Positions 6,515-23,122 of a stretch of 64,000 bases of DNA are shown here, piece by piece (within the stretch, counting starts at the first letter, position 1; every line of letters starts with the position of its first letter). This DNA comes from Thermoanaerobaculia bacterium (GTDB lineage Bacteria; Acidobacteriota; Thermoanaerobaculia; Multivoradales; Multivoraceae). The stretch lies in assembly GCA_963666565.1 (NCBI GenBank), contig OY762911.1, forward strand, positions 3,456,001-3,520,000. Reading direction: 5' to 3'. The translations under genes were made by a program, and so were the position numbers. Below the pieces are notes generated by a model. The model was given only the letters and a program-made list of their open reading frames with translations. It searched no databases and was not told the DNA's origin.

Positions 6515-7282
6515 TCAGCCGGCGCCTTCCCGGACCGTGGCGAGGATGATCGAGATGTTGTCCCGGCCGCCGTCGTCCATGGCGAGATCGAACAGCCCGG
6601 TCGCCGCGGCGGCGCCAGTTTCGGCCGCCGCCAGGACCTCCTCGATCCGGCGAACGTCGAGGTGATCCGTCAGTCCGTCGCTGCAGAGCAGGTACCGCCA
6701 TCCGGCGTTCAGTTCTTCGCGGCCCACGTGAGGGCTCACGTCCACGAAGCTCGACCAGCCGCCCAGGGCCTGCGTGATGCGGCCCGATCGCGGCGCCTCG
6801 GGCGGCACGTCGTCGATGCTCAACTGCCTCGCGAACCCGTCACGGTAGCGGTAGATCCGGCTGTCCCCCACGTTGAACCAGCGGATGCCCCCGGACGCGA
6901 AGAGCATGCCGGCCACCGTGGTCCCCATCGCGCGTCTCCCGGGCGGTTCCGCCGCCGCCTCGTACACCGCCCGGTTCACGTCCCGGATCGCCTTCGCCGT
7001 CCCGGTGCCGAGTTCGTCGTCCTCCTCACCGATGCGCTCCGCCAGCAGGCGGGCGGCGAGCGCGCTCGCCTCCTGGCCCGCGGCGTGGCCTCCCATGCCG
7101 TCCGCCACCAAGCACAGGACCGGCTCACGAAGGGAGCGCTCGACCGACCGGGGCGCCTCCATTTCCTCGGCGCCGGCCCGGAAGTCCCCGACGACGATCG
7201 TGTCCTCGTTCCGCTCGCGGACCTTGCCCCGGTGGGTCCAGGCCGTCGCCTCCAGCGTGAACCGCCCGGCCGCGTCAGCCAA
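6515..7282 (-). CDS. PP2C/PPM-family Ser/Thr phosphatase
   Basis: GKVRERNED, VADGMGGH, MGTT, NVGDSRIY, LLCSDGL, GGRDNISII. Probable TTG start overlaps the FHA gene stop. Confidence 0.93.
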   Translation of the reverse strand: MADAAGRFTLEATAWTHRGKVRERNEDTIVVGDFRAGAEEMEAPRSVERSLREPVLCLVADGMGGHAAGQEASALAARLLAERIGEEDDELGTGTAKAIRDVNRAVYEAAAEPPGRRAMGTTVAGMLFASGGIRWFNVGDSRIYRYRDGFARQLSIDDVPPEAPRSGRITQALGGWSSFVDVSPHVGREELNAGWRYLLCSDGLTDHLDVRRIEEVLAAAETGAAAATGLFDLAMDDGGRDNISIILATVREGAG

Positions 7283-7856
7283 GCCGCACCACCGCGCCGG
7301 CATGGCGGGAGAAGCCGATCTCGTCGTCCTCCGCCAGGCGCCTGGACTCCCCCACGTCGCCGATCGCCGTGCCGTTGAGGTACGTCGGGTTCGTTCGGCT
7401 CAGATGGCGCACCGTCAGGAAACCCTCGCCGTCCAGAAAGAACTCCGCGTGCCGCCGGGACACGTACATGTTGCCGCTCAACTCCCGGGCGTGGCGGCAG
7501 AACTCCGGATCCCGTCCGATCCCCACCGTTTCGCCCGGACCCACCACGACGTCCCCCCATTCGAATGAGAGGGTGGCACGGGGACCCGCCCCGCCCGGCT
7601 CCATCGTCGTCGCCGCCACGCCGGCATCGGCCTGGGCCGCCACGCCGGCGCCGGCCGGCGGCGGCGGCACCGCTGCCGCGGCCGGTTCGCTCCGGTCCTC
7701 CCGCACGGGAGGGCCGCCGTCCTCGGCGCCCGCTGCGGGAGGAGGCGGGCCGGTCGTCTTCGCCGCTCCCGTGAGCGGCGTATGGCATTCGACGCAGAAC
7801 AGCTCGTGCAGGTCGTTGCCGGCGCCGCAGGCGGGACACTGGATCATTCGCGCCAT
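7275..7856 (-). CDS. Zinc-ribbon + FHA domain protein
   Basis: CPACG...FCVEC zinc ribbon and Pro/Ala linker, then FHA motifs IGRD, VSRRHA, SRTNPTYLNG. Confidence 0.9.
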   Translation of the reverse strand: MARMIQCPACGAGNDLHELFCVECHTPLTGAAKTTGPPPPAAGAEDGGPPVREDRSEPAAAAVPPPPAGAGVAAQADAGVAATTMEPGGAGPRATLSFEWGDVVVGPGETVGIGRDPEFCRHARELSGNMYVSRRHAEFFLDGEGFLTVRHLSRTNPTYLNGTAIGDVGESRRLAEDDEIGFSRHAGAVVRLG

Positions 7857-8496
7857 GAAGCACCCTTCAGAACGACCCCTCTCGCCGCCAGGTTCGCCTC
7901 GAGCCGCTCCAGGTCGCCGCCCGCCGGGATGCCGACCAGGGTCACGTCGCCTCGTCCCACCTCGACCTGGAGACGATCCCGTCCGGCGGGCCCCTCCCGG
8001 CCGAAGCGCCGGTAAAGCTCCCTGCCCCGCTCGCTCAGCCCGACGAGCTTCTGGTTCGCCGACCCCAGCCAGCGGGACTCGCCGCTCAGGCTGGCCACGA
8101 ACGGTTCGGCGATCAGGCCGTCGAGGCCCGCCAGCACGGCCGGAAAGTCGGCGCGCAGGCGGCGCAGGCCGAAGCCGCTGTAGCAGAGGATGTCGAACCA
8201 GCCCTCCGGACGCTCGCTCCGCCACGACCGAAGACTCTCCACGAAGGCCGCCAGCGCGTCCGGCTGCTCGAAGGGCTCGCCGCCGCTGATCGTCACGCCG
8301 TCGAACCCTCCCGAACCGGCGGCCCGGCACCACTCGACCAGTTCGTCGACCTCCACGGACCGGCCCCCTTCGGGGTCCCATGTGTCCCGGGACGAGCAAC
8401 CCGGGCAGCCGATGGAGCAGCCCTGGAACCAGACGCCGATCCTCCGGCCGGGGCCGAGCGTGGTCACCGGAAACCGGGCGTCGTTCAGCCGCACCC

Positions 8497-8500
<4 letters not shown>
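7844..8500 (-). CDS. NrdG-like radical SAM (4Fe-4S single-cluster) protein
   Basis: LGPGRR.GVWFQGCSIGCPGC (CxxxCxxC), GVTISGGEPFEQ, YSGF, GSANQ. ATGA overlap with the AAA gene. Confidence 0.9.
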
Positions 8501-10484
<1,984 letters not shown>

Positions 10485-10488
<4 letters not shown>

Positions 10489-11855
10489 CGGGCGGCCTCC
10501 CGGACCTCGGCTTTGCGACGCCGGGGCCGCTGCGCGCGGGCGGGCGCCGCGGCTTCCTTCCGGGCTCCCTCACCCTCGTGGACCTTCAGCCGGCTGACGC
10601 CGACCGGGAAGCGCTTCCCCACCTTGAGGCGGACGCCCCGCCCGGCCATGGCCCGGCGAAACTCCCCGAAGTCCCGGCACCAGGCACTCTCCAGGTCCCG
10701 GTCCCGGCGCACGTCCTTGCCGGCCTTCTGCCGGCCGGAAGCCGCGACGCGGACCGGCTCGACATCGATGGCGTTTCCATCGACGTCGACGACGACGCCG
10801 AGTTCTTCTTCGTCCGTCTTCCTCAGGATCGTCCGTCCGCCGTCGGAGAAGATCGAGTCGAAACCATCTTCGACGGCATATCCCAGGCGCTCGAGTTCCT
10901 CCCGCATCACCATGCCGACATACCGCTGGTCGTCCCGCTCCCTGCCGCTCCGGACGACTGCTTCGACGCGATCCGCAATGCCGTCGTCGAGCGCGGCCCG
11001 GCGCCGTTCGACGCGATCGAGTTCGGCCGAGATCGCCTCCACCTCTTCGCCGCGGAAACCGCGGATCCGCTCCCTGAGATCCTCCACCGCATCGGCCAGG
11101 TGCCGGTCCGCTTCGACCTTGGCCTCCTCGACCCGGTCGTTCGCTCGCTGGACCCCCAACCGGAGCTCCAGCAGCATCCTTCCGGCTCGCGCCGGACGTC
11201 CTTCACGTTCTTCGGCGCCGATGCGGGCGGCCAGTTCCTCCAGGCCGCTCCGGTCCGCGGCGGGAACCTCGGCCGACAGACGGTCGACCAGCCGCCGCGC
11301 ATCCCGCGCCGCCGCATCCGCGGGCGCCTCCGCGGTCTCCGCCGGGCCCGACGGGCCGTCCTCCGGGCGCGGCATGCCCTCCATGCCGGACAGTTCGGAT
11401 TCGGAGAACCCCTCGGCTACCGAGGGTTCCGCCGGGCCAGCCTCCGAGGTTCCCAGCGGACGGGCCTCAAGTCCGCCGAGAAGAAACGACCTGGCCTCAT
11501 CCTGTTGGCGCCGGCGCCCTTCCATCTTCCGGCGGTGCCGCTTCAGGCGCCCTTCCATGGTCAGGCAATGGCGCCGCAGGCGCCTCACATAGCGCTGGAC
11601 CGGCCTCGGGCTCCTCGCGTCAACGGGTCGCACGGGGGGCCGTCCCCACTCTGCCATCCCGTCCCGGTACTCCGCGTACGCGCTGCGGCTCTCCGAGTAC
11701 TCCGCCTCCAGCCGAGCCTGGCGGCTCTCCAGTTCGTCGGCTTCCCCCCAAGCCGCAGCCAAGGCTCGCTCGCGCCTTAGCCGCTCCTGCTCCGCCAGGT
11801 ATGCCAAGTACTCCGGGCTCGGCTCATTGTCCCACCATCCGTGCTCTTTGCTCAC
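10485..11855 (-). CDS. Coiled-coil hypothetical protein, copy 1 (C-terminal LGYxVExGF...ExxWC domain)
   Basis: GTG start VSKEHGWW matches the paralog start at 15880. E/R/A-rich helices. ATGA overlap with the AAA gene. Confidence 0.8.
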
Positions 11856-11921
11856 ATGAACACCACGTCTGTTTCGGCGAAGACAGCGAAGCGGCACGAC
11901 CGCGTCACGATCCGGCCCGAC

Positions 11922-11927
11922 TATACT
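11922..11927 (+). promoter_or_regulatory. Putative -10 box TATACT upstream of kinase 1
   Basis: TATACT is retained at the equivalent place (15944) in the otherwise diverged duplicate intergenic region. Confidence 0.5.
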
Positions 11928-12091
11928 CGCCCTTCCGCGATACCCGTTTCCGTGAAGGAGAGTCCGACCATGGCGCCGATACACCGCATCGCGGCCTGGA
12001 ACCCGGCGAAAAGCCCATGTCGGCTCGTCAGTCTCGGGCGAAGGGTCTCCCCCGCCGCGCCGGGATCGCGGCTCGAGAGAAGGCCCTCCGG

Positions 12092-14575
12092 GTGACCGAA
12101 GGGCGCGGCCCGCGGCCGCCGGACGAGACGCGGCGGGAAACGCCGTCGGCGACCGACGGGACCCGCCGGGAGACGCCGGCGCCGCCGGACGGGACGCGGC
12201 GCGAGGCGCCCTCGCCATCCGACGCGACCCGGCTGGAGTCGCCCGGTCCAGCGGATGCGACGCGCGCCGAAGAGGCGCCTCCAGGCCACGCCGGCGCCGG
12301 CTCTCCCACCGCAACTGGCTTTCCCCAGGACCTCGCGGCGCGCTTCCGGCCGGTCCGCGAGTTGGACCACGGCAACCAGGCCGACGTCTGGCTGGTGGAG
12401 GAAGAGGCGGGCGTTCCACTCGTCGCGAAAGTGTACCGGCCCGGGTTCGAGGGACGGCCGGACATCCTGGAGATCCTTCACGGCCTGGAACCGAACCGGG
12501 ACATCGTGCCGGTCGTCTCCTACGGCCGCGCCGGCGGCCGGCTGTACGTCCTGCTCGAGTACGTGCCGGGCGGCAACCTGAAGAGCCTGATGACGCCGGG
12601 CGAGCCGTCTTCGCCCGACCTCGTCCGCGAAGTGCTCGCGCAACTGGTCGCCGCTCTCGAACGCCTCCACGGAGTGGGCATCGAGCACCATGACCTGAAA
12701 CCCGGCAACGTCCTGGTCCGGAACCAGCAACCCCTGGACCTCGTGCTGGCCGACTTCGGCGTGGCGACCCAGGCGTCGAGAACGGTCCGGGCCACGAGGC
12801 TCAGCGGCATGACCTGGACCTACGCGCCCCCCGAGGCGTTCGCCAGGAATCCCGACGAACTGCTCCTCTGGCAGCACAAGTTCGACGCCTGGTCGCTGGG
12901 CGTCATGGTCGTGGAGTTGCTGACGGGCCGCAACCCGCTGCCGGAGACCGAGATGGCGATCGCGACGTTCTTCGCAACCGGCAACATGGACGACCTGGTC
13001 GAGGGCGTGGACGATCCGGCGTGGAGGAAGCTCTGCCGCGGTCTGCTGCGCCGGAATCCGGAAGTGCGCTGGGGCACGGCGGAGGCGCGGCGGTGGCTCG
13101 AGGCGCCGGATGCGCCCGAGCTCCAGGTGGAGGCCGAGACGGCGCCGGCGGCCGCGCCGTCGCGCGGTTTCCGCTTCGTGGGCCGGGACTACGCAACGCC
13201 AGCCGATCTGGGCGCGGCCATGGCCGGCGACTGGGCCATGGCCGAGGACCTCTGGAGGAACCAGACGCCGGCGCTGTTGCAGTGGCTCCGCCACGAACTC
13301 GGATCCACGGAGGCGGCGGCCCGCGTGGAGGAGATCGACGGCACGCCGGGCATGGGCCTGGACGAGCAGTTGTTCTGGGCAATCCGCGCGCTCGCCCCTC
13401 AGGCGCCGCCGTCTTACCGGGGCGAGCCGCTGGCGGCCGAGAACCTGGCCCGGATCGCGAGCCGGGCGGCCGCGACGCCGGACGGGGACGACGCCCGCCT
13501 GCTGACGGCGGTCAGCCGCATCCCGCGTCTCGGTAGCAGCATCCCGCAGGTCGGAGATGCGGGGAATCCGGCGTTGACCGCGCAGGCGGCGCGATGGTCC
13601 GGCACGGCGCCGGCCTGGGAAGAGCTGCGCCGGGCACACGGGGAACTGCCGGAGCTCCCGGAGACGGACCGGATTGCCCTGCTGGCCGCGGCGACCGAGG
13701 GCAGCGGCGTGACCGAGCAGTTGCGGGAGCGGACATCGCAGGTCCTCGCCAAGTGGCCGCGGGCCAGGAAGTCCGCCCGGTTCCGGCGCCTCGGCGACCC
13801 AAGGCGCGCCGAGAGTCCTCAGCTTCTCGCCATGGCCCTGCTCGCCGCGACGACCCACGAGCGGGTCAAGACGGAAACGAGGGAAAGGCTGAAGACGCGC
13901 CGCCTGGCCATCGCCGCGGGAGCGCTGTCCGGACTCGTCTTCCTCCTCATCCGCCTCCTCATCGAGCCGTCGATGGCCGCCGCCGCCGGCCGGTTCGAGT
14001 ACGTGACCGCCCCGGAAGGCGACGGCGCCGACGTCGCCTGGAGGTTCTTCTGGGGCGAGTTCATGTCGTCCAGCGAGCAGTTCGCCCCCGTGCCGGCGAT
14101 GGTGGTTGGCGCCGCGGTCGCGCTCTGGCTGTGGTGGCGGTTCAGGCCGTCAGGCTGGGTCGTCCTGCTGTGCGGTCCGCCGGCGTTCCTTCTCGGCGCC
14201 GCGTTGACGATCATCAGCCTGTACGAGTTGTTCGGAAGCGTCATGATTCTCAGCTACACGATTCCCGGTCCGCTTCTCGTGGACGCCAGTTTCATCGTCG
14301 GGGCTTGCCTGGGCGTCGGCTTCGGCCTTGGCGTGGGTCTCGAACGCCTGCGCCTGAAACTCTCGGCGCGGACCTTTGCGCTCGCGCCGCTCGCCGTCAC
14401 GCTCTGCATCGTTCTGGTGTGCGCGGCCATCGGCGCCGCGCGCTTCCCCGGTTGGCATGCCGGGCTGTTCGGGGACCCGCCTCCGCTCGGAGACGGCGTG
14501 TACCGGGTGGACGGCCAGCACTACCGGGTGCAGGACGGCGTGGGGGTCGAGATAGAGGCGCCCGTTTCGGAATAG
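12092..14575 (+). CDS. Ser/Thr protein kinase 1 (non-RD) with N-terminal Thr repeats and C-terminal multi-TM domain
   Basis: VAKVY, HHDLKPGN, DFG, YAPPE, DAWSLG. GTG start (VTEG) shared by all three paralogs. Several C-terminal hydrophobic helices. Confidence 0.9.
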   Translation: MTEGRGPRPPDETRRETPSATDGTRRETPAPPDGTRREAPSPSDATRLESPGPADATRAEEAPPGHAGAGSPTATGFPQDLAARFRPVRELDHGNQADVWLVEEEAGVPLVAKVYRPGFEGRPDILEILHGLEPNRDIVPVVSYGRAGGRLYVLLEYVPGGNLKSLMTPGEPSSPDLVREVLAQLVAALERLHGVGIEHHDLKPGNVLVRNQQPLDLVLADFGVATQASRTVRATRLSGMTWTYAPPEAFARNPDELLLWQHKFDAWSLGVMVVELLTGRNPLPETEMAIATFFATGNMDDLVEGVDDPAWRKLCRGLLRRNPEVRWGTAEARRWLEAPDAPELQVEAETAPAAAPSRGFRFVGRDYATPADLGAAMAGDWAMAEDLWRNQTPALLQWLRHELGSTEAAARVEEIDGTPGMGLDEQLFWAIRALAPQAPPSYRGEPLAAENLARIASRAAATPDGDDARLLTAVSRIPRLGSSIPQVGDAGNPALTAQAARWSGTAPAWEELRRAHGELPELPETDRIALLAAATEGSGVTEQLRERTSQVLAKWPRARKSARFRRLGDPRRAESPQLLAMALLAATTHERVKTETRERLKTRRLAIAAGALSGLVFLLIRLLIEPSMAAAAGRFEYVTAPEGDGADVAWRFFWGEFMSSSEQFAPVPAMVVGAAVALWLWWRFRPSGWVVLLCGPPAFLLGAALTIISLYELFGSVMILSYTIPGPLLVDASFIVGACLGVGFGLGVGLERLRLKLSARTFALAPLAVTLCIVLVCAAIGAARFPGWHAGLFGDPPPLGDGVYRVDGQHYRVQDGVGVEIEAPVSE
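12116..12275 (+). repeat. Five 33-bp (11-aa) repeats D-x-T-R-x-E at the kinase 1 N-terminus
   Basis: DETRRE, DGTRRE, DGTRRE, DATRLE, DATRAE at 11-aa spacing. Confidence 0.8.
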
Positions 14576-14593
14576 GGTCGCGGCCCGCGACGC

Positions 14594-15880
14594 TCACCGC
14601 CCGGCTTGCCGGACCTGGGGCTTGCGGCGCCGGGACCGCTTCGCGCGGGAGGCCGACGCGGCTTCCTTCCGGCCTCCCTCGCCCTCGTGGACCTTCAGCC
14701 GGCGAACGCCGACCGGTAAGCGCTTCCCCACGCGGATGTCGACGCCCCGGCCGGCCATGGCCTGGCGGACCTCCGCGAAGTCCCGGCACCACGCGCTCTC
14801 CAGTTCCCCGTCCCGCCGCGCACCCTTGCCGGCCTTCAGCCGCCCGGAAGCCGCGACGCGGACCGGCTCGACACCGATGGCATTGCCCGCGACATCGACG
14901 ACGACGCCGAGTTCCTCTTCGTCCGTCTTCTTCAGGAGCGTGCTCCCGCCCCCGGAGAAGATCGAGTCGAAACCCTCCTCGACGGCATAGCCCAGGCGCT
15001 CGAGTTCCTCGCGCATCACCATGGCGACGTACTGCTGCGCGTTCCGCTCCCGGGCGCCCCGGACGACCGCCTCGACGCGATCCGCGATGTCTCCGTCGAG
15101 CGTGGCCCGGCGCTGTTCGACGAGGTCGAGTTCGGCCGAGATCTTCGCGACGTCATCGCCGCCGAATCCGAGGAGCTTCTCCCGGAGATCTCCCACCGCC
15201 TCGGCCAGGCGCCGGTCCGCTTCGACCCTGGCCTCCTCGACCCGGTCGTTCGCTCGCTGCACCCCCAGCCGGAGTTCCAGCAGCATCGTTCTGGCTCGCT
15301 CCGGATGCTCTTCGGCGGCGATGCCCGCCGCCAGTTCTTCCAAGGCGCCCCGGTCCGCGGCGGGAACCTCGGCCGACAGGCGGCCGACCAGCCGCCGCGC
15401 GTCGCGCGCCGCCCCGTCCGCGGACGCGCCCACGGTCTCGGGCGAGCCGGACGGAGATTCCTCCGGCCCGGCCACGTCGTCCAGGCCGGACACCTCGGAT
15501 TCGGAGAGCCCGGCGGCCTCCGGGGCGCCTGGCGAGCCGGCCTCGAACCCGTCGAGAAGAAACGACCGGACCTCGCGTTGCCGGCGGCGTAGCCGGCGCC
15601 CCCTCAGGCGCCCTTCCAGAGTGACGTAGTGGGAGCGCAGGCGCCTCACATAGTCCACGGCCACATCCGGGGGACCCTCAACATCGGGTCGCGCGGGCGG
15701 CCGTTTCATCTCGTTCCGGTACTCCGGATACTCCGCCTCCAACCTGGCCTGCAACGTGCCCACGCGTTCCTCCATTCGGAGCGCTTCGTTCCAACATCGC
15801 TGGTAGGCTCGCTCGATTCCCAGCGGCCCTCCCCATCGATTCTCATCCAGGAGTGTCCACCACCCGTTCTCTTTGCTCAC
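14594..15880 (-). CDS. Coiled-coil hypothetical protein, copy 2 (paralog of 10485-11855)
   Basis: Highly similar C-terminal two-thirds (VMREELERLGYAVEEGFDSIFS, ESAWCRDF) with a divergent N-terminus. Confidence 0.8.
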   Translation of the reverse strand: MSKENGWWTLLDENRWGGPLGIERAYQRCWNEALRMEERVGTLQARLEAEYPEYRNEMKRPPARPDVEGPPDVAVDYVRRLRSHYVTLEGRLRGRRLRRRQREVRSFLLDGFEAGSPGAPEAAGLSESEVSGLDDVAGPEESPSGSPETVGASADGAARDARRLVGRLSAEVPAADRGALEELAAGIAAEEHPERARTMLLELRLGVQRANDRVEEARVEADRRLAEAVGDLREKLLGFGGDDVAKISAELDLVEQRRATLDGDIADRVEAVVRGARERNAQQYVAMVMREELERLGYAVEEGFDSIFSGGGSTLLKKTDEEELGVVVDVAGNAIGVEPVRVAASGRLKAGKGARRDGELESAWCRDFAEVRQAMAGRGVDIRVGKRLPVGVRRLKVHEGEGGRKEAASASRAKRSRRRKPQVRQAGR

Positions 15881-15943
15881 AGCATCTCCATGGCGGCTTC
15901 AGGTCGGACCGCGACGCAGGCCGGTCTCGTCGAATCGACACAC

Positions 15944-15949
15944 TATACT
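15944..15949 (+). promoter_or_regulatory. Putative -10 box TATACT upstream of kinase 2
   Basis: Positional counterpart of 11922-11927. Confidence 0.45.
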
Positions 15950-16120
15950 CACGACAATGCCCTCAATCGCCACTCCCTCCAGTGAAGACGAGTCAGACCA
16001 TGGCGCCGATCCATCGCGTCGCGGCCGGAGTTCGGTACGGACCTGTTGCCCGCTCGCCGGGCTCGGGAGAGCGGCTTCCCGCACGGCGCCGGGATTGCGG
16101 ATCGCGCGAAGGCCCATCGG

Positions 16121-18391
16121 GTGACTGAAGGCGGCGGCCCGCGACCCCCTGACGGGACCCGGCGAGAAACACCGGGGCCGCCGGACGAGACGCAGCGCGA
16201 AGCCCCCTCGCCATTCGACGCGGCCCTGCCCGAGTCCTCCGCCGCGGCGGATGCGACGCGCGCCGAAGAGGCCCACCCCGCCGCGTCGCCTTCCGCGACC
16301 GGCTTCCCCGAAGAGCTCGCGACGCGTTTCCGGCCCGTCCGCGAGCTCGACCACGGCAGCCAGGCCGACGTCTGGCTGGTGGAGGACGACGCCGGCACGC
16401 CGTTCGTCGCGAAGGTGTTCCGCCCCGGATTCGAGGGACGGCGGGACATCCTGGAGATCCTGCATGGCCTGGAACCGAACCGGGACATCGTGCCCGTGGT
16501 CTCCCACGGCCGCGCCGACGGCCGGCTGTACGTCGTGCTCGAGTACGTGCCGGGGGGCAACCTGAGGGGTCTGATGCAGCCGGGCGTTCCGGCCTCGACC
16601 GATCTGGTCCGCGAGGTGCTGACGCAGTTGGTCTCCGCGCTCGAGCGGCTCCACGGAAAGGGCATCGAGCATCAGGACCTGAAGCCCGGCAACGTCCTGG
16701 TGCGGAGCCGGCAGCCCCTGGATCTGGTGCTGGCCGACTTCGGCGTCGCCGCCCAGACGTCGGAGACCGTCCGGGCCACCAGGCTGGCCGGCATGACCTG
16801 GGCCTACGCGCCGCCCGAGGCGTTCTCGCTCCAGCGCGAAGAACTGATGCTCTGGCGGGGCAAGTACGACGCCTGGGCGCTGGGCGTCATCGTCGTGGAG
16901 CTGCTGACGGGCCGGCATCCGCTGCCGGGAAGCGAGGCGGCGATCGCGACGTTCTTCGTGACCCGCGGCACGGACGACCTGGTCGTGGGCGTGGACGATC
17001 CGGCATGGCGGAAGCTCTGCCGCGGCCTGCTGCGCCGGGATCCGGAAGCCCGCTGGGGCACGGCGGAAACTCGGCGATGGCTCGAGGCGCCGGACGCGCC
17101 CGAGCTCGATGTGAAGGAAGAGGCGGCGCCGGCGCGGGGCTTCCGCTTCGTCGGTCGGGACTACGCGACGCCCGCCGATCTGGGCTCGGCGATGGCCGGC
17201 GACTGGAACTCGGCCGAGGACGTCTGGAGGAACCGAACGCCCGAACTGGTGCAGTGGCTCCGCCACGAGCTCGGAACTCCCGACGTGGCGGCCCGCCTGG
17301 AGGAGATCGACCGCACGCCGGGTCTGGACTTGGACGCGCAGTTGTTCTGGGCGATCCGCGCGCTCGCCCCCCGGTCGCGGCCGTCGTTCCGGGGCGAGTC
17401 GCTGGCGACGGAAAACCTGGCGCTTGTCGCCAGCCGGGCCGCTGCCCGGCCGGACGGCGCCGACGCCGGGCTGCTGCTGGCGGTCAGCAATGTGCCTGGC
17501 CTCGGCGAGATCGGAGATCCGGCACTGACCGCGCAGACGGCGCGGTGGTCGGGCGTGGAGGCGGCCTGGGAAGAGCTGCGCGGACAACACGGGGAGCTGC
17601 CGGGTCTCTCGGAGACCGATCGGTCGACCCTGCTGGCGGCGGCGACCGAAGGCAGCGGCGTCACCGAGCAGTTACGGGAACGGACGTCGCGGGTCCTCGC
17701 GAAGCGGCCGCGGGCCGCGAAGTCCGACTGGTTCAAGCGCCTCGGCGCCGTGAGAAGCGCCGAAGCGCCGTGGCTTCGCGCCATGACCCTGCTCGCCGGC
17801 CAGGCGCACGAGGAGGTCGAGGCGGAACTCAGGTTGCGGCGGAAGACGCGGCGTCTGGCCATCGCCGCCGGAGCGGCGGCCGGAATCGCGATCAGCCTTC
17901 TCGTCCTGTTGATCGAGCCCTTCATAACCCACGACCCGATGCCCAGCCTGGTTGTCAGCGCAGCGATCGCGGCACTGGTGGTGATCGCGGCACTGGTCGG
18001 ATTCGGCACGAGATCGCGGCCGACCGGCGCTTCCGCCGAGGGCCTCTCGAACTTGGGGGCACGGTACGAGTTCCTCTTGGGCATCCCGGGCTGCTTTTCG
18101 GTGTTCGGGCTCATGTTCATCGGTCCGTTGATGTGGTCCTGGCTGTTCGGGAGAATCCCCGGTCCGTTCCTCGTGGACGCCGGTCTCGTCATCCTGCCGT
18201 GCACGGCCATCGGCTTCGGTGTTGGCGCGGCTCTCGAGCGCCTGAACCGGCAGCTCACGGTGCGTACCGCCGCCCTCGCAACGCTGGCGATCATGTTCGC
18301 GGTCGCGCTCGTGTCCTTAGTGATCCTGCTTTCGGAATTGGCCAGCGGAGAGTCCGCCGGAATTCGCGGCGGCTTGGAGGACGGCCCTTGA
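16121..18391 (+). CDS. Ser/Thr protein kinase 2 (non-RD) with variable C-terminal TM domain
   Basis: VAKVF, HQDLKPGN, DFG, YAPPE, DAWALG. Paralog of kinase 1. Confidence 0.9.
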   Translation: MTEGGGPRPPDGTRRETPGPPDETQREAPSPFDAALPESSAAADATRAEEAHPAASPSATGFPEELATRFRPVRELDHGSQADVWLVEDDAGTPFVAKVFRPGFEGRRDILEILHGLEPNRDIVPVVSHGRADGRLYVVLEYVPGGNLRGLMQPGVPASTDLVREVLTQLVSALERLHGKGIEHQDLKPGNVLVRSRQPLDLVLADFGVAAQTSETVRATRLAGMTWAYAPPEAFSLQREELMLWRGKYDAWALGVIVVELLTGRHPLPGSEAAIATFFVTRGTDDLVVGVDDPAWRKLCRGLLRRDPEARWGTAETRRWLEAPDAPELDVKEEAAPARGFRFVGRDYATPADLGSAMAGDWNSAEDVWRNRTPELVQWLRHELGTPDVAARLEEIDRTPGLDLDAQLFWAIRALAPRSRPSFRGESLATENLALVASRAAARPDGADAGLLLAVSNVPGLGEIGDPALTAQTARWSGVEAAWEELRGQHGELPGLSETDRSTLLAAATEGSGVTEQLRERTSRVLAKRPRAAKSDWFKRLGAVRSAEAPWLRAMTLLAGQAHEEVEAELRLRRKTRRLAIAAGAAAGIAISLLVLLIEPFITHDPMPSLVVSAAIAALVVIAALVGFGTRSRPTGASAEGLSNLGARYEFLLGIPGCFSVFGLMFIGPLMWSWLFGRIPGPFLVDAGLVILPCTAIGFGVGAALERLNRQLTVRTAALATLAIMFAVALVSLVILLSELASGESAGIRGGLEDGP

Positions 18392-18452
18392 CCAGCAAGG
18401 TACACATCCGGATCGCCGTCCCGGAGACAGCGGCCGGGGAAGGGCACTCCAG

Positions 18453-20789
18453 GTGACCGAAGGCGGCGGCCCGCGGCCCCCTGCCGGAACACGGCGCGAG
18501 CCGCCGGAGGCGCCGGACGAGACGCAGCGCGAAGCCCCCTCGCCATTCGACGCGACCCTGCCGGAATCCTCCGCCGCGGCGGATGCGACGCGCGCCGAAG
18601 AGGCACCTCTCGCCCACCCCGCCGCGCCGCCTTTCGCGACCGGCTTCCCCGAAGAGCTCGCGACGCGTTTCCGGCCCGTCCGCGAGCTCGACCACGGCAG
18701 CCAGGCCGACGTCTGGCTGGTGGAGGACGACGCCGGCACGCCGTTCGTCGCGAAGGTGTTCCGCCCCGGATTCGAGGGACGGCGGGACATCCTGGAGATC
18801 CTGCATGGCCTGGAACCGAACCGGGACATCGTGCCCGTGGTCTCCCACGGCCGCGCCGACGGCCGGCTGTACGTCGTGCTCGAGTACGTGCCGGGGGGCA
18901 ACCTGAGGGGTCTGATGCAGCCGGGCGTTCCGGCCTCGACCGATCTGGTCCGCGAGGTGCTGACGCAGTTGGTCTCCGCGCTCGAGCGGCTCCACGGAAA
19001 GGGCATCGAGCATCAGGACCTGAAGCCCGGCAACGTCCTGGTGCGGAGCCGGCAGCCCCTGGATCTGGTGCTGGCCGACTTCGGCGTCGCCACCCAGGCA
19101 TCGGAGACCGTCCGGGCCACCAGGCTGGCCGGCATGACCTGGGCCTACGCGCCGCCCGAGGCGTTCTCGCTCCAGCGCGAAGAACTGATGCTCTGGCGGG
19201 GCAAGTACGACGCCTGGGCGCTGGGCGTCATCGTCGTGGAGCTGCTGACGGGCCGGCATCCGCTGCCGGGAAGCGAGGCGGCGATCGCGACGTTCTTCGT
19301 GACCCGCGGCACGGACGACCTGGTCGTGGGCGTGGACGATCCGGCATGGCGGAAGCTCTGCCGCGGCCTGCTGCGCCGGGATCCGGAAGCCCGCTGGGGC
19401 ACGGCGGAGGCGCGGCGGTGGCTCGAGGCGCCGGACGCGCCCGATCTGGACGTGAAGGACGAAGCGGCGCCGGCGACGACGCCGTTGCGCGGCTTTCGCG
19501 TCAAGGATCGGGACTACGCGACGGCCGCCGACCTGGGCTCGGCGATGGCCGGCGACTGGGCCATGGCCGAGGACGTCTGGAGGTACAGGACGCCGGAACT
19601 GCTCCAGTGGCTCCGCCACGAACTCGGAACTCCGGACGTGGCGGCCCGCCTGGAGGAGATCGACCGCACGCCGGGTCTGGACTTGGACGCGCAGTTGTTC
19701 TGGGCGATCCGCGCGCTCGCCCCCCGGTCGCGGCCGTCGTTCCGGGGCGAGTCGCTGACGGCGGAGAATCTGGCGCGCGTCGCCAGCCGGGCGGCCGCGC
19801 GGCCGGACGGCGCCGACGCCGGGCTGCTGGTGATGCTCCACGACATTCCTCGTCTCGGAGGCCCCGGAGATCCGGCGCTGACCGCGCAGATGGCGCGATG
19901 GTCCGGCGCGGCGGCGGCCTGGGGAGCTCTTCGCGGAGAGCACGCCGAACTGCCCGAGCTTTCGTCGACCGAACAGAAGCTCCTGCTGGCCGCGGCGACC
20001 GAAGGCAGCGGCGTGACCGAGCAGTTGCGGGAACGGACGCGGGACGTTCTCGCGAAGTGGCCGCGGGCCCGGAAGTCCGACTGGTTCCGGCGCCTCGGCG
20101 CCGTGAGACGTGCCGAAGGGCCGCAGCTTCTCGCCATGGCCCTGCTCGCCGGTCAGGCGCACGACGAGGTCGAGGCGGACGTCCGGGCGAGCCGGAAAAC
20201 CCGGTGGCTCGGCATCGGCGCCGGAGCGACGTCCGGCCTCGCGTTCTCGCTCCTCTGCCTGTTCTTCAAAGGGCTGATGTTGGAGTACGACGATTGGGTG
20301 GCCCTCTGGGACGACAGCGCCTCCTTCCTGGGGCCGACCATCGCTGTGCTGGCGATGCTGGCTGGAGGAGCGACGGTCTTGATCTGGGTACTCGGCCGTT
20401 CTCTAGTGGCCTTAGATCTCGCGAACCCGTTCTATAACTGCCTCTTGATTCTGTGCGGCTCTCCGTTGTTGTTGCTCGCCGTGTTTTCTCTGACGTATTT
20501 CTTCCTGTATGGGCTGTTCGGAAGCGCCATGATCCTGAGCTACACGATTCCGGGCCCGTTCTTCCTGGCGCCGGGTTTCGCTCTCGTGATCTGCATGGCC
20601 ATCGGCATCGGTCTCGGCATGGCTCGCGATGTCCTGAACCTGAAGGAGACCGTCACCACCAGAGAGACGCTGAACCGGCTCATCCTCGACACGCTGGTCA
20701 TCACGCTCTGCGTCATCCTGATGTGCGCGGCCATCGGCGCCGCGCGCTTCCCGGGTTATCTTGGTGCTCTTTTCGGCGAGTGGGGCTAG
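18453..20789 (+). CDS. Ser/Thr protein kinase 3 (non-RD) with variable C-terminal TM domain
   Basis: Catalytic domain nearly nucleotide-identical to kinase 2. Distal part closer to kinase 1. Confidence 0.9.
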   Translation: MTEGGGPRPPAGTRREPPEAPDETQREAPSPFDATLPESSAAADATRAEEAPLAHPAAPPFATGFPEELATRFRPVRELDHGSQADVWLVEDDAGTPFVAKVFRPGFEGRRDILEILHGLEPNRDIVPVVSHGRADGRLYVVLEYVPGGNLRGLMQPGVPASTDLVREVLTQLVSALERLHGKGIEHQDLKPGNVLVRSRQPLDLVLADFGVATQASETVRATRLAGMTWAYAPPEAFSLQREELMLWRGKYDAWALGVIVVELLTGRHPLPGSEAAIATFFVTRGTDDLVVGVDDPAWRKLCRGLLRRDPEARWGTAEARRWLEAPDAPDLDVKDEAAPATTPLRGFRVKDRDYATAADLGSAMAGDWAMAEDVWRYRTPELLQWLRHELGTPDVAARLEEIDRTPGLDLDAQLFWAIRALAPRSRPSFRGESLTAENLARVASRAAARPDGADAGLLVMLHDIPRLGGPGDPALTAQMARWSGAAAAWGALRGEHAELPELSSTEQKLLLAAATEGSGVTEQLRERTRDVLAKWPRARKSDWFRRLGAVRRAEGPQLLAMALLAGQAHDEVEADVRASRKTRWLGIGAGATSGLAFSLLCLFFKGLMLEYDDWVALWDDSASFLGPTIAVLAMLAGGATVLIWVLGRSLVALDLANPFYNCLLILCGSPLLLLAVFSLTYFFLYGLFGSAMILSYTIPGPFFLAPGFALVICMAIGIGLGMARDVLNLKETVTTRETLNRLILDTLVITLCVILMCAAIGAARFPGYLGALFGEWG

Positions 20790-20873
20790 TAAACTGTGTG
20801 GCACATCGACGGCAAGCACTACGGGTTCCGGGGCGGCGACCCGGTCGAGTTGGAGGCGCCCGTTTCGGAGTAG
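20790..20873 (+). pseudogene. In-frame vestigial C-terminal tail of kinase 3 beyond TAG-TAA
   Basis: Reads *TVWHIDGKHYGFRGGDPVELEAPVSE*, homologous to the kinase 1 tail VYRVDGQHYRVQDGVGVEIEAPVSE*. Confidence 0.8.
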
Positions 20874-20884
20874 AGTCGCGCCCC

Positions 20885-23122
20885 ATGAAGCGCCTTCCGG
20901 CGGCGACCATCGCCGCACTCCTGTCGCTGTGGGCCGCCGCGTCGGGGGCCCAGATCGCCCGCCCGTCCGCCGCGGCGGTGGCCGTGGGCGAGGCCCCGGC
21001 GCTCGATGGCGCCGTCCTCGACGATCCCGTCTGGCAAAGCGTCGCGCCGGTCTCGGGCACGACGCAGACCCGGCCGTTCGCCGGCGAGCCGGGCACGGAA
21101 CGCACCGAAGTGCGTTTCGCCTTCACCGAGGACACCCTCTTCGTCGGCGTCGTCTGCCACGACCGGGCGCCGGACGGCATCGTCATCTCGGACAGCCGGC
21201 GGGACGCGGCCCTGGACGAGACGGACAGCTTCCAGGTCATCTTCGACACGTTCCGGGACGGGCGCAACGGCTTCGTGTTCGGTACGAACCCGGCCGGCAT
21301 CGAGTACGACGGCCAGGTCGTCGAGGGCGGCTCCGGCGTGTTCAGCGGCATGGGCGGCGGCGGCCGCTTCCGGGGCGCCCTGAGCACCGGCTTCAACCTG
21401 AACTGGGACGGCGCCTGGAACGTCGCCACAGAGGTCGGAGAGTTCGGCTGGAGCGCCGAGTTCGCCATTCCCTTTCGCACCCTCCGCTATCCCCCGACCG
21501 ACGTGCAGACCTGGGGCCTCAACTTCCAGCGCAACATCGCCCGCCACCGGGAAGTCGCCTTCTGGGCCGAGCTCGACCGGAACCACGACCTCGACCGGCT
21601 GACCGACGCGGGCTCGCTCCAGGGCGTCGAGCCGCCGCCGCAGCGCAACCTGAAGCTGATCCCCTACGCGATCGGATCGAGCAGGGAGCCGCCCGCGGCC
21701 GGCAGCGGCAGCGAGTCGGACTCCGACCTCGGCGTCGACCTCAAGTACAGCGTGACCCCGAGCCTGACCCTCGACGTGACGTACAACACGGACTTCGCCC
21801 AGGTCGAGGTCGACGAGCAGCAGGTGAACCTCGACCGGTTCAACCTGTTCTTCCCCGAGAAGCGGCCGTTCTTCCTGGAGAACGCCGGCCTGTTCACCGT
21901 CGGCGCGCGTTCGGGGGGAAGCCGCGCGTCGGCCCGCGTCGACCTGTTCTTCAGCCGGCGCATCGGCATCGGGCCCGGCGGCGAACTGATCCCGATCGAC
22001 TACGGCGGCCGGCTCTCCGGCAAGGCGGGCCGCTTCAACGTCGGGCTGCTCCACATGCAGACCGCGTCGGTGGGAGGGCTGCACGGCAACGACTACGCCG
22101 TCGCCCGCGTCAACCGGGAACTGGGCGAGCGCTCCAGCATCGGCGGCATGTTCGTGAGCCGCGAGGGCGTGGGCAGCCTCGCGCCGGAGGGCGACACGAA
22201 CCGGACCTACGCCATCGACGGCAAGTGGGGCATCGGCGAGCATCACACCGTCGAGACCTACGTCGCCCGGACCGACACGCCGGGACTCGAGGGCGACGAC
22301 AGCTCGATGCTCCTGAGCTACAACCTCGGCAAGCCGCAGTGGCGCGGCAGCCTCAGCCTCGCCGAGGCGCGCGCGAACTTCAACCCGGAAGTCGGCTTCA
22401 TGTCGCGGCGGGACTTCCGGAACTTCTCCACGTTCGTGATGCGCACGGTCCGGCCGAAGAACCTCGCCGGCTTCCACGAGATCCGGCCCCACGCCTCCTA
22501 CAGCGGCATCTGGGACTTCGACGACTACAAGGAGACCCAGTACATCCACGTCGACACGCACTGGGAGTGGCGCAACGGCTTCCAGGTCCACACCGGCGTG
22601 AACTTCACCGAGGAGGGCGTCAAGGAGACGTTCGAGATCGTCGACGGCTTCCCGGTCCAGGCGGGAAGGTACAGCCACGACGAGCTGCAGACCGTGTTCT
22701 CGACGAACCAGGCGAAGCCGTTCTCGGTCTACATCCGCAACGTCACGGGCGGCTTCTTCGGCGGCGACCGGAGTTCCACCTCGCTCACCCTGCTCGCCCG
22801 GCGCGGCGAGCGGCTGACCTCGGAACTGACCTGGGACCACAACGACGTGGACATCGCCTCCGGCGGCTTCCAGGTCAATCTGGGCCGGCTCCGGCTCTCC
22901 TACTCCATCACCCCCCGGATGCTCGTCCAGGCGCTCGCCCAGTACAACGACCAGTCCGACAACGTGTCCGCGAACCTGCGCTTCTCCTGGCTGCAGGACG
23001 CGAACACGGGGCTGTTCGTGGTCTACAACGAGATCGACGAGCTGGGCGCGCGGATCCTCTACGAGAGGCCGGACCGCACCGTGATCGTCAAGTACAGCCG
23101 CCTGATCGACGTCTTCCGTTGA
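20885..23122 (+). CDS. CBM9-like/DUF5916 outer-membrane-associated protein
   Basis: Signal peptide. APALDG..DDPVW, WSAEFAIPFRTLRY, NTDFAQVEVD, EKRPFFLE, LFFSRRIG. Confidence 0.85.
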   Translation: MKRLPAATIAALLSLWAAASGAQIARPSAAAVAVGEAPALDGAVLDDPVWQSVAPVSGTTQTRPFAGEPGTERTEVRFAFTEDTLFVGVVCHDRAPDGIVISDSRRDAALDETDSFQVIFDTFRDGRNGFVFGTNPAGIEYDGQVVEGGSGVFSGMGGGGRFRGALSTGFNLNWDGAWNVATEVGEFGWSAEFAIPFRTLRYPPTDVQTWGLNFQRNIARHREVAFWAELDRNHDLDRLTDAGSLQGVEPPPQRNLKLIPYAIGSSREPPAAGSGSESDSDLGVDLKYSVTPSLTLDVTYNTDFAQVEVDEQQVNLDRFNLFFPEKRPFFLENAGLFTVGARSGGSRASARVDLFFSRRIGIGPGGELIPIDYGGRLSGKAGRFNVGLLHMQTASVGGLHGNDYAVARVNRELGERSSIGGMFVSREGVGSLAPEGDTNRTYAIDGKWGIGEHHTVETYVARTDTPGLEGDDSSMLLSYNLGKPQWRGSLSLAEARANFNPEVGFMSRRDFRNFSTFVMRTVRPKNLAGFHEIRPHASYSGIWDFDDYKETQYIHVDTHWEWRNGFQVHTGVNFTEEGVKETFEIVDGFPVQAGRYSHDELQTVFSTNQAKPFSVYIRNVTGGFFGGDRSSTSLTLLARRGERLTSELTWDHNDVDIASGGFQVNLGRLRLSYSITPRMLVQALAQYNDQSDNVSANLRFSWLQDANTGLFVVYNEIDELGARILYERPDRTVIVKYSRLIDVFR

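Follow-up and report, generated by a model that had tools for sequence, protein, structure and literature searches.

A conserved, mobile gene set joining a two-tier AAA+ ATPase, a helical partner, an activase-like radical SAM enzyme and membrane kinases: a candidate conflict system in a Thermoanaerobaculia bacterium

Do neighboring genes for membrane Ser/Thr kinases, an FHA protein, a PP2C phosphatase, a ClpB-like ATPase and a radical SAM enzyme form one system, and if so, what could it do for its host? We addressed this question for a cluster of about 14 kb (positions 6515-20789) in a 64,000-nucleotide stretch of a Thermoanaerobaculia bacterium genome (contig OY762911.1, positions 3,456,001 to 3,520,000; hereafter, the window). 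An earlier reading of the letters without database searches (the sequence-only reading) had proposed the cluster as a candidate undescribed system with a possible role in biological conflict. The cluster comprises a minus-strand operon with overlapping gene ends, whose products are the PP2C phosphatase, a zinc-ribbon-FHA protein, the radical SAM enzyme, the ClpB-like AAA+ ATPase and CC1, a helical protein. A paralog of CC1 (CC2) and three membrane Ser/Thr kinases that are paralogs of one another (K1-K3) lie with the operon. We could confirm that this gene set is a real, conserved and mobile unit. A conflict or defense role is likely, and with somewhat less assurance we favor an as yet uncharacterized kind of conflict system, made up of several genes and spread by horizontal transfer, most likely acting in defense against phages or other mobile elements.

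A scan of one genome per species with generic motifs returned four true relatives (Ca. Aalborgicola, an alphaproteobacterial metagenome-assembled genome (MAG), Bradyrhizobium hipponense and a Lachnospiraceae MAG), and a metagenome scan with an alignment of the AAA+ N-terminal domain (N-domain) identified 131 relatives; we retained the 80 best. In a word-indexed search, the N-domain family proved small, with 27 clusters. In all, 84 loci with the N-domain were mapped by jackhmmer, using the window proteins over all open reading frames (ORFs), and reduced to 56 non-redundant clusters at 90% AAA+ identity. Two gene orders were found. In type A, CC is followed by the AAA+ ATPase, the radical SAM enzyme, optional FHA and PP2C genes, and a membrane kinase. 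In type B, the AAA+ and radical SAM genes precede a kinase of ~2,090 amino acids, fused to DUF4011, a superfamily 1 (SF1) helicase and the nuclease domain REase_MTES_1575, and CC comes last; a divergent RNase_H_2-SF1 helicase accompanies this type in 10 loci.

The radical SAM gene followed the AAA+ gene in 33 of the 40 non-redundant loci with at least 700 nucleotides downstream, and CC stood directly upstream of the AAA+ gene in 24 of 38. Where at least 3.5 kb was available downstream (29 non-redundant loci), the radical SAM and kinase genes occurred together in 21, the radical SAM gene alone in one, the kinase alone in none and neither in seven. FHA was present in 6 and PP2C in 4 of the 20 non-redundant loci with room for them. 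From these counts, CC and AAA+ are the core, radical SAM and kinase are one add-on module that is gained and lost together, and FHA and PP2C are accessory. The combination that we used as a working definition of the system (an AAA+ ATPase with a dead N-terminal tier, an adjacent CC, an activase-like radical SAM enzyme and a kinase with the conserved post-kinase domain) was found in the window and in 21 of the 29 loci. The sequence-only reading had let its proposal stand or fall with the co-occurrence of homologs elsewhere and with the absence of a matching housekeeping pathway; the set does recur, and neither NCBIfam nor PADLOC matched it to a characterized housekeeping pathway.

Because the same set recurs in dozens of unrelated contigs, the grouping goes beyond chance. 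The possibility of chance neighbors or of a decaying operon is refuted by the conserved loci and by whole-genome concordance: Pseudomonadota, Clostridia and many metagenome contigs keep the genes in the same order, start codons overlap with stop codons, and reading frames and catalytic motifs are intact. Among 401 genomes of the phylum, the C-terminal domain of CC was found only in G000 and G205, the same two that gave a strong N-domain match, and the gene order in G205 is CC-AAA-rSAM-FHA-kinase (rSAM, radical SAM). Four weak N-domain matches in the phylum sample were set aside; the three of them that were fetched were other AAA proteins without the partner genes.

The set is distributed in the manner of an accessory trait that can be transferred. 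In 60 relatives of the source genome, including 36 congeners, the full-length AAA+ protein found only housekeeping Clp-type D2 modules, and no match listed began before residue 234; the N-domain was strong in one of 400 other genomes of the phylum. The set was also found on the Bradyrhizobium hipponense chromosome, a Rhizobium leguminosarum conjugative megaplasmid and a 44-kb Aristaeella lactis plasmid. The N-domain occurred on 11 plasmid records, seven from Rhizobium and the others from Caballeronia, Photobacterium, Geminocystis and Aristaeella; five of the 11 were typed conjugative. None of the 50,697 phage records contained it.

The gene model of the window was built from a codon-position GC plot, scans with Pfam, NCBIfam and PADLOC, and paralog alignment. 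It contains the following features:

6515-7303, minus strand: PP2C-type Ser/Thr phosphatase, 262 amino acids from the ATG at 7303, with an alternative TTG start at 7282
7275-7856, minus strand: zinc-ribbon and FHA protein, predicted phosphothreonine reader, 193 amino acids
7844-8500, minus strand: small radical SAM enzyme of the PflA/NrdG-like, glycyl-radical-enzyme-activase type, 218 amino acids
8497-10488, minus strand: two-tier AAA+ ATPase, 663 amino acids
10485-11855, minus strand: CC1, helical protein of unassigned family, 456 amino acids, GTG start
11856-12016: divergent intergenic region between CC1 and K1, 161 bp from gene start to gene start, presumed to hold promoters
12017-14575, plus strand: kinase K1, 852 amino acids
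14594-15880, minus strand: CC2, paralog of CC1, 428 amino acids
16046-18391, plus strand: kinase K2, 781 amino acids
18453-20789, plus strand: kinase K3, 778 amino acids

The sequence-only reading had described five minus-strand genes overlapping end to start, and all four overlaps were found where it placed them: ATGA at 10485-10488 and at 8497-8500 on the minus strand, 13 nucleotides (ATGGCGCGAATGA) at 7844-7856 between FHA and radical SAM, and 8 nucleotides at 7275-7282 between PP2C and FHA. The last holds only if PP2C starts at the TTG at 7282; with the ATG at 7303, the overlap is 29 nucleotides. Its domain calls (PP2C, FHA, radical SAM, ClpB-D2-like AAA+, kinase) were borne out by Pfam and NCBIfam. 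Two boundaries changed. The cluster had been drawn to 20873 and ends at 20789, and its coiled-coil gene, a 644-amino-acid ORF reaching 12419, was rejected for the 456-residue CC1 at 10485-11855, as the codon-position GC plot switches frame near 11900 and the paralog start aligns there. The earlier reading had also missed CC2, the build of CC (a long helical region plus a small conserved α/β domain), the degenerate N-terminal half of the AAA+ protein and the accessory status of FHA and PP2C.

K1 diverges from CC1, CC2 (minus strand, its frame supported by codon-position GC) diverges from K2, and K3 follows K2. CC1 and CC2 share 69% of their amino acids and 84% of their nucleotides over 931 nucleotides; over ~1.8 kb, K2 is 81.5% identical in nucleotides to K1 and 91.2% to K3, without any nucleotide match in the K2 tail. 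The divergent CC-kinase unit has thus been duplicated in the window. As the window has a G+C content of 70%, long spurious ORFs abound. The ORF at 13594-15624 (plus strand), which had neither a coding signal nor a Pfam match, was rejected as a gene; together with 8380-11592 (plus strand) and others of 600-1,070 amino acids, it belongs to a group of antisense or out-of-frame artefacts that lack both coding signal in the codon-position plot and family matches.

The AAA+ ATPase starts with a Pro-rich tail (residues 1-55), followed by a degenerate AAA+ module without Walker A (56-330) and an intact ClpB-D2-like module (333-647; Pfam AAA_2, E 1.1e-48, and ClpB_D2-small, E 1.2e-8). Across 24 homologs, the D2 module keeps a Walker A (GPTGVGKT), a pore loop (PPG(Y)), a Walker B (DE), the sensor N502 and GGRG. 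Its Walker motifs, GYVG-type aromatic pore loop, sensor residues and D2-small domain are the hallmarks of a ClpB/Hsp104 D2 tier, and the module has every feature of a threading motor. The N-terminal half (56-330) had no sequence match in Pfam, and a profile search against PDB sequences gave only helical noise. Its AlphaFold 2 model (pLDDT 92.9), however, gave 560 Foldseek matches in the PDB (E ≤ 0.001), with Rubisco activase, proteasomal Rpt, p97-D1 and FtsH at the top, and has SGNxRD and DYASR in the places of Walker A and Walker B. On this model, we read the first tier as a catalytically dead AAA+ fold. The protein therefore departs from complete ClpB/Hsp104, which has two active tiers, a Clp N-domain and a middle domain: no Clp_N match, no active D1 and no middle domain were detected in it, and it scored far under the NCBIfam ClpB cut-off (255.8 against 1232.1 bits).

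The partner of this ATPase in the core pair has no recognizable family. CC1 had no match in Pfam, NCBIfam or PADLOC, only clusters named 'hypothetical protein' in the ESM Atlas, and only helical noise when a CC profile was compared with PDB sequences. Its AlphaFold 2 model (pLDDT 81.6) has long helices at 14-130, an acidic disordered linker, a helical bundle at 181-323 and a small α/β domain at 334-427 followed by a basic tail; its Foldseek matches were no stronger than E 0.7 in the PDB and E 0.12 among the viral structures of BFVD. The profile of the C-terminal domain matched 1,961 representative proteins at E ≤ 0.001. The domain stood at the C-terminal end in all 150 matches listed, most of them 350-460 residues long, and CC1 and CC2 are its only two copies in the source genome. 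Its invariant residues are G325, D385, W392, C393 and G419. Nearly all CC homologs (L014-L170; L185:4472-5764) begin with MSGPxT(S), and the two window copies begin with MSKE(N/H)GWW. The homolog at L185:4472-5764, a probable CC on a Clostridia plasmid, begins with MSGPxT and was missed by the C-domain profile.

We considered CC as a substrate of the radical SAM enzyme through two glycines. A role for G419, which lies in the C-terminal hairpin loop, is unsupported, as G419 and C393 are kept in loci without the radical SAM gene, and Gly3 of MSGPxT is absent from several loci that have it, both window copies included. Pfam Gly_radical did not match CC at E ≤ 0.01, and no conserved Gly site was found in the post-kinase domain shared by the kinases.

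The radical SAM enzyme matched Pfam Fer4_12 (E 3e-22) and Radical_SAM. Its best NCBIfam match was NrdG (E 2.4e-19) and its second PflA (E 2e-14), both well under the equivalog cut-offs (69.8 against 126.1 bits and 53.5 against 231.75 bits, respectively), and the closest solved structure is that of Escherichia coli PFL-AE (3c8f, E 1.1e-10). It resembles these activases in its small size, its N-terminal CX3CX2C motif (C28/C32/C35), its GGE SAM motif, both aligned to 3c8f, and its Gly-rich N-terminal loop. The CX3CX2C motif, GGEPF and the loop LGPGRR are conserved across 38 homologs, as is a C-terminal extra segment of ~60 amino acids; LGPGxR we take to be the peptide-binding loop of activases. 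In PFL-AE, the cluster cysteines are Cys29/33/36 (PMC13450708). Besides the low scores and the C-terminal extension, the enzyme differs from PflA and NrdG in its setting. No glycyl-radical enzyme was found in the 97%-complete single-contig genome (no match to PF01228 or to the NrdD family PF13597); as a control, the same searches gave matches in 3 and 6 of 14 genomes, respectively. Since the genome lacks both families, the enzyme is confirmed as an orphan activase-like enzyme, as the sequence-only reading had it. Among other hosts of the system, Rhizobium and Bradyrhizobium are aerobes, a further difference from the PflA and NrdG activases.

Could the enzyme act on a nucleotide or small molecule instead, like viperin or QueE, and produce a signaling or antiviral compound, with the AAA+ protein and CC as a separate effector or chaperone and no protein radical at all? 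Weak QueE matches (TIGR04322, E 4.6e-4; PDB 5tgs, E 3.8e-4) and the precedent of prokaryotic viperins, radical SAM enzymes that make antiviral nucleotides, point that way. So does the locus L116, the only non-redundant one with a radical SAM gene and no kinase, where a gene for the type I GTP cyclohydrolase FolE2 (9079-9882) lies directly upstream of the AAA+ gene. However, the FolE2 link is confined to one locus, the set has no further conserved gene of a nucleotide pathway, and the best matches are the protein activators named above, in alignments that take in the presumed peptide-binding loop. We therefore hold this alternative to be quite improbable.

In K1, Thr/Pro-rich N-terminal repeats precede a Hanks-type kinase domain; a conserved post-kinase domain, helical in structure, and a membrane tail of five segments follow. 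K2 and K3 have the same architecture with diverged tails; the three proteins are nearly identical in the kinase and post-kinase domains, and all have five transmembrane-like segments, in agreement with their earlier description as membrane kinases. HHDLKPGN or HQDLKPGN, DFG, VAK and PPEAF, conserved in 31 homologs, supply the HxDLKxxN motif, DFG, ATP-binding Lys and APE segment of Hanks-type Ser/Thr kinases. Pfam Pkinase matched K2 (E 9.3e-30) and K3 (E 5.1e-30) above its cut-off, and the best kinase match of K1 among the NCBIfam and PADLOC models was mad6 (E 1.6e-34), far under the MAD6 cut-off. The N-termini (12050-12200 in K1) are tandem repeats of ~11 residues resembling DGTRRETPxPP, with one repeat fewer in K2 and K3; they are possible sites of autophosphorylation and FHA docking. 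Homologous kinases elsewhere have a C..C zinc-ribbon-like motif in their place. Between the K1 and K3 tails, nucleotides match only in one stretch of 66 (14388-14453 against 20692-20757, 88% identity), which may be a trace of recombination between paralogs. A weak SLATT_1 match in K2 (E 0.0012), absent from K1 and K3, was kept as a lead only, and the C-terminal half of K2 had no usable match in the ESM Atlas.

Type-A and type-B kinases share ~600 residues, including the helical post-kinase domain, and differ beyond them. Of 18 type-A tails, 16 have 1-3 transmembrane-like segments; also seen in tails were an FGE-sulfatase domain past the membrane segments, Sel1 repeats, or GYF and a DnaJ-type zinc finger. 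Receptor-like tails would also suit a role outside defense, in envelope or stress signaling, with receptor kinases sensing the condition of the envelope and controlling through FHA and PP2C an AAA+/CC/radical SAM remodeling machine in the cell's own physiology, for instance for the regulated disassembly of a helical scaffold or for protein quality control. The membrane segments in 16 of 18 type-A tails, the one kinase with an FGE-sulfatase domain, like classical receptor kinases, and the metabolic surroundings of the window cluster, free of mobile-element marks, fit this alternative, as does the threonine-phosphorylation pathway of type VI secretion systems (T6SS), where a kinase, FHA and PP2C gate a ClpB-like ATPase on the cell's own machinery. 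It is harder to reconcile with the absence of the set from the 60 relatives and its strong occurrence in one of 400 other phylum genomes, with carriage on plasmids, with the fusion of the type-B kinase to a helicase and restriction-type nuclease, with known defense genes in the flanks and with the diversified tails of the paralogs. We regard this signaling role as unlikely, and still as the foremost competitor of a defense system.

The proposed phosphothreonine eraser and reader are both well supported as family members. Pfam PP2C_2 matched the phosphatase (E 1.1e-13; score 51.7, gathering cut-off 24), which has the motifs DGMGGH, VGDSR, SDGL and RDNIS; its match to NCBIfam Stp1/IreP stayed under the cut-off (141.5 against 230 bits). 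Residues 113-182 of the FHA protein matched Pfam FHA (E 3.4e-10; score 40.6, gathering cut-off 20.7) and contain the signatures GR, SRRH and NPTYLNG. The zinc ribbon of this protein (CPAC...CVEC) gave a weak match under the cut-off (Zn_Ribbon_1, E 0.0019). Thus, both proteins pass their gathering cut-offs and carry the signature residues, whose roles we presume to be the usual ones. FHA domains read phosphothreonine, and PP2C enzymes erase it.

In its logic, the system most resembles the T6SS threonine-phosphorylation circuit, which consists of the kinase PpkA, Fha1, the phosphatase PppA and the ATPase ClpV: in both, a Hanks-type membrane kinase is combined with FHA as reader, PP2C as eraser and an ATPase of the ClpB family, which in T6SS acts on a helical polymer-forming partner. 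Might the cluster then be a remnant or variant of this circuit or part of another contact-dependent weapon? The shared composition and the presence of TssH/ClpV among the NCBIfam matches (208.9 bits) would argue for it, but this score is far under the cut-off of 884.95 bits, the sheath gene TssC/VipB (PF05943) had no match in the genome, and no T6SS gene was among the conserved neighbors in the 84 loci. The source genome thus lacks the sheath and structural genes of a T6SS. Moreover, the system ATPase has a dead AAA+ tier in place of the Clp N-domain and active D1, a radical SAM enzyme is present, and FHA and PP2C are accessory here. This alternative is very improbable and close to refuted.

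Dodola (DolA and the ClpB-like DolB) and the PADLOC candidate PDC-M37 likewise have a two-gene core of an unknown protein and a ClpB-D2-like ATPase. DolB (E 3.5e-18) and PDC-M37B (E 2e-29) matched the AAA+ core; however, the matches cover only residues 342-503 and 384-503, respectively, no window gene matched DolA, CC did not match M37A, and the models lack the dead N-terminal tier, the radical SAM enzyme and the kinase. The pair of DolA and full-length DolB is therefore absent from the window. Among PADLOC and NCBIfam models, K1-K3 match mad6, PD-T4-6 and PglW (BREX type 2) best, and the divergent type-B helicase matches MkoA/MkoC (Mokosh-like). MAD6 scored 73.1-88.7 bits against K1-K3 (cut-off 460), and the other mad models did not match any of the window's nine proteins in PADLOC. 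MADS is an eight-gene operon with a methylase and specificity subunit, as described in the preprint 10.1101/2023.03.30.534895; the window cluster has no methylase or specificity subunit and no MAD7 or MAD8. MADS, BREX-2 and PD-T4-6 share only the generic kinase domain with the system, below the family cut-offs.

A precedent for a protein effector matured by radical SAM enzymes in antiphage defense is HXS, in which, according to PMC13128918, HxsB and HxsC mature the effector HxsA. In that defense setting, too, the target of the radical SAM chemistry is encoded in the enzyme's own operon; in contrast, the families are unrelated, the radical SAM type is another, the effector is periplasmic and the system has no AAA+ partner and no kinase, a word that does not occur in the paper.

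The evidence for a conflict role is circumstantial and consists of the patchy distribution, the plasmids, the nuclease and helicase fusions and the defense genes in flanks elsewhere; to that extent only, this part of the sequence-only reading is supported. An RT-Cas1 fusion gene lies ~1.4 kb downstream of the system in L155 (13849-16863), an SspH-like gene directly upstream in L103 (6350-8752) and an LmuB-like ATPase gene directly upstream in L145; HerA/mad8-like ATPases occur in L144 and L155. At E ≤ 1e-10, flank ORFs from 40 loci had matches to 123 PADLOC families, with a single RT-Cas1 accounting for 84, and control ORFs beside ordinary ClpB genes matched 5, in a scan of 150 of 211 test and 150 of 651 control ORFs that used rough ORF calls and counted families, not genes. 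The flank matches include SspH, HerA/mad8 (four times), mad3 (four times), MTase_II, RmrA and MkoA. Together with the nuclease-helicase fusions and the diversifying paralogs, the defense genes in the flanks favor a conflict role.

Several observations weigh against this reading and against the radical step within it. The flank comparison is qualitative, as the test ORFs come mostly from metagenome contigs and the controls from genome contigs, and a probable system gene, the type-B helicase, sat among the scored 'flanks'. The window's own flanks lend the conflict role no support: they are ordinary metabolic genes (hydrolases, DUF5916, TRAP transporter genes), and no tRNA, integrase or defense gene was found in them. 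PADLOC has no model for the CC, radical SAM, FHA or PP2C proteins of this set, and receptor-type kinase/FHA/PP2C sets also serve housekeeping envelope signaling. As seven non-redundant loci have the AAA+ gene without the radical SAM and kinase genes, the core pair cannot depend on the radical step. Loci without the radical SAM gene also retain the invariant Gly and Cys of CC, which argues against CC being simply an activase substrate and warns against a simple scheme in which the radical SAM enzyme activates CC.

How might such a conflict system work? We put forward the following course of events tentatively, and every step of its signal flow and chemistry is doubtful. The variable C-terminal part of the kinase would sense the trigger: a membrane bundle here, and elsewhere transmembrane segments with an FGE-sulfatase domain, Sel1 repeats or a cytoplasmic helicase-nuclease. 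The type-A kinases are receptor-like, hence the proposal of the tail as sensor, and the helicase-nuclease of type B would likewise suit the sensing of nucleic acids. Threonine phosphorylation, with candidate sites in the Thr/Pro-rich repeats of K1-K3 and in the acidic CC linker, would be read by FHA and reset by PP2C, as a guard against self-activation. The phospho-signal might then license protein threading by the AAA+ ring, with CC or a protein of the invader as substrate, and the radical SAM enzyme could abstract a backbone hydrogen atom from the extended chain.

Activase-type radical SAM enzymes require an extended peptide in the active site, as known from PFL-AE structures, so a threading motor beside such an enzyme is plausible for substrate delivery. 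Glycyl radicals undergo backbone cleavage upon oxygen exposure (PMC13450708), and the radical step would thus be irreversible in aerobic hosts. The irreversible change, cleavage in air or a cross-link, might arrest the infected cell or the invader: either an invader protein would be destroyed, or CC would be activated or released as the killing part. That the whole amounts to an immune-type machine, in which a sensor-kinase signal makes the AAA+ ring hand an unfolded chain to an activase-type radical SAM enzyme for backbone scission or cross-linking in air-breathing hosts, is unlikely, on our estimate. The sequence-only reading had proposed that the AAA+ protein remodels, and the radical SAM enzyme modifies, the coiled-coil protein; we infer such a mechanism only as a proposal, and the earlier interpretation is partly supported overall.

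If the machine proved to be of this kind, activase chemistry would for the first time be seen at work beyond anaerobic metabolism, and prokaryotic immunity would have a new effector principle. More generally, a widespread but rare system would come to light whose core is common to no characterized system: an unfoldase with one dead and one intact tier, a helical partner that lacks any structural match, and a radical SAM enzyme of the protein-activase type in genomes without a glycyl-radical enzyme. The role of an orphan activase, in aerobes included, and the gating of an immune-type output by Ser/Thr phosphorylation would become testable. Cloning and genetics are feasible, since the hosts include cultured bacteria that are not pathogens, and plasmids carry the set as well (Rhizobium leguminosarum, Bradyrhizobium hipponense, Aristaeella lactis). 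Thousands of generically named records would also gain an annotation; in annotated records, the NCBI labels are 'AAA family ATPase', '4Fe-4S single cluster domain-containing protein' and 'hypothetical protein'.

The sequence-only reading had known of no experimental characterization, and our literature search likewise found no description of the gene set, which supplementary candidate lists of defense or comparative-genomics papers could still name. No characterized system with this core is known to us. In the available part of Kaur et al. 2020 (PMC7159879), radical SAM proteins are mentioned only in FtsH ternary systems.

Some loci showed further variation around the set. In the Aristaeella lactis plasmid (L185; NZ_CP069422.1, 15062-32924), the DUF4011 helicase is split from the kinase, and a DUF6273 protein and a second kinase are added after PP2C. 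Two loci (L144:6797-7987 and L155:6769-8133) have a gene for a DUF4407 protein between kinase and FHA, in the order K-DUF4407-FHA-CC-AAA-rSAM. One kinase-less locus has a 1,406-amino-acid leucine-rich repeat protein after the AAA+ gene. C39-peptidase ABC transporters in 5 loci were discarded as candidates: they are not adjacent to the system and were probably grouped by their common ABC domain. In the window, a gene for a DUF5916 protein (E 1e-23) lies directly after K3 at 20790-23122 (plus strand) and is not conserved beside the system elsewhere. Ca. Aalborgicola carries a minimal CC-AAA+ pair followed by RtcB and an RF-1-domain (PrfH-like) gene (L014:12408-14209), two genes that we take to be an RNA-repair/ribosome-rescue module.

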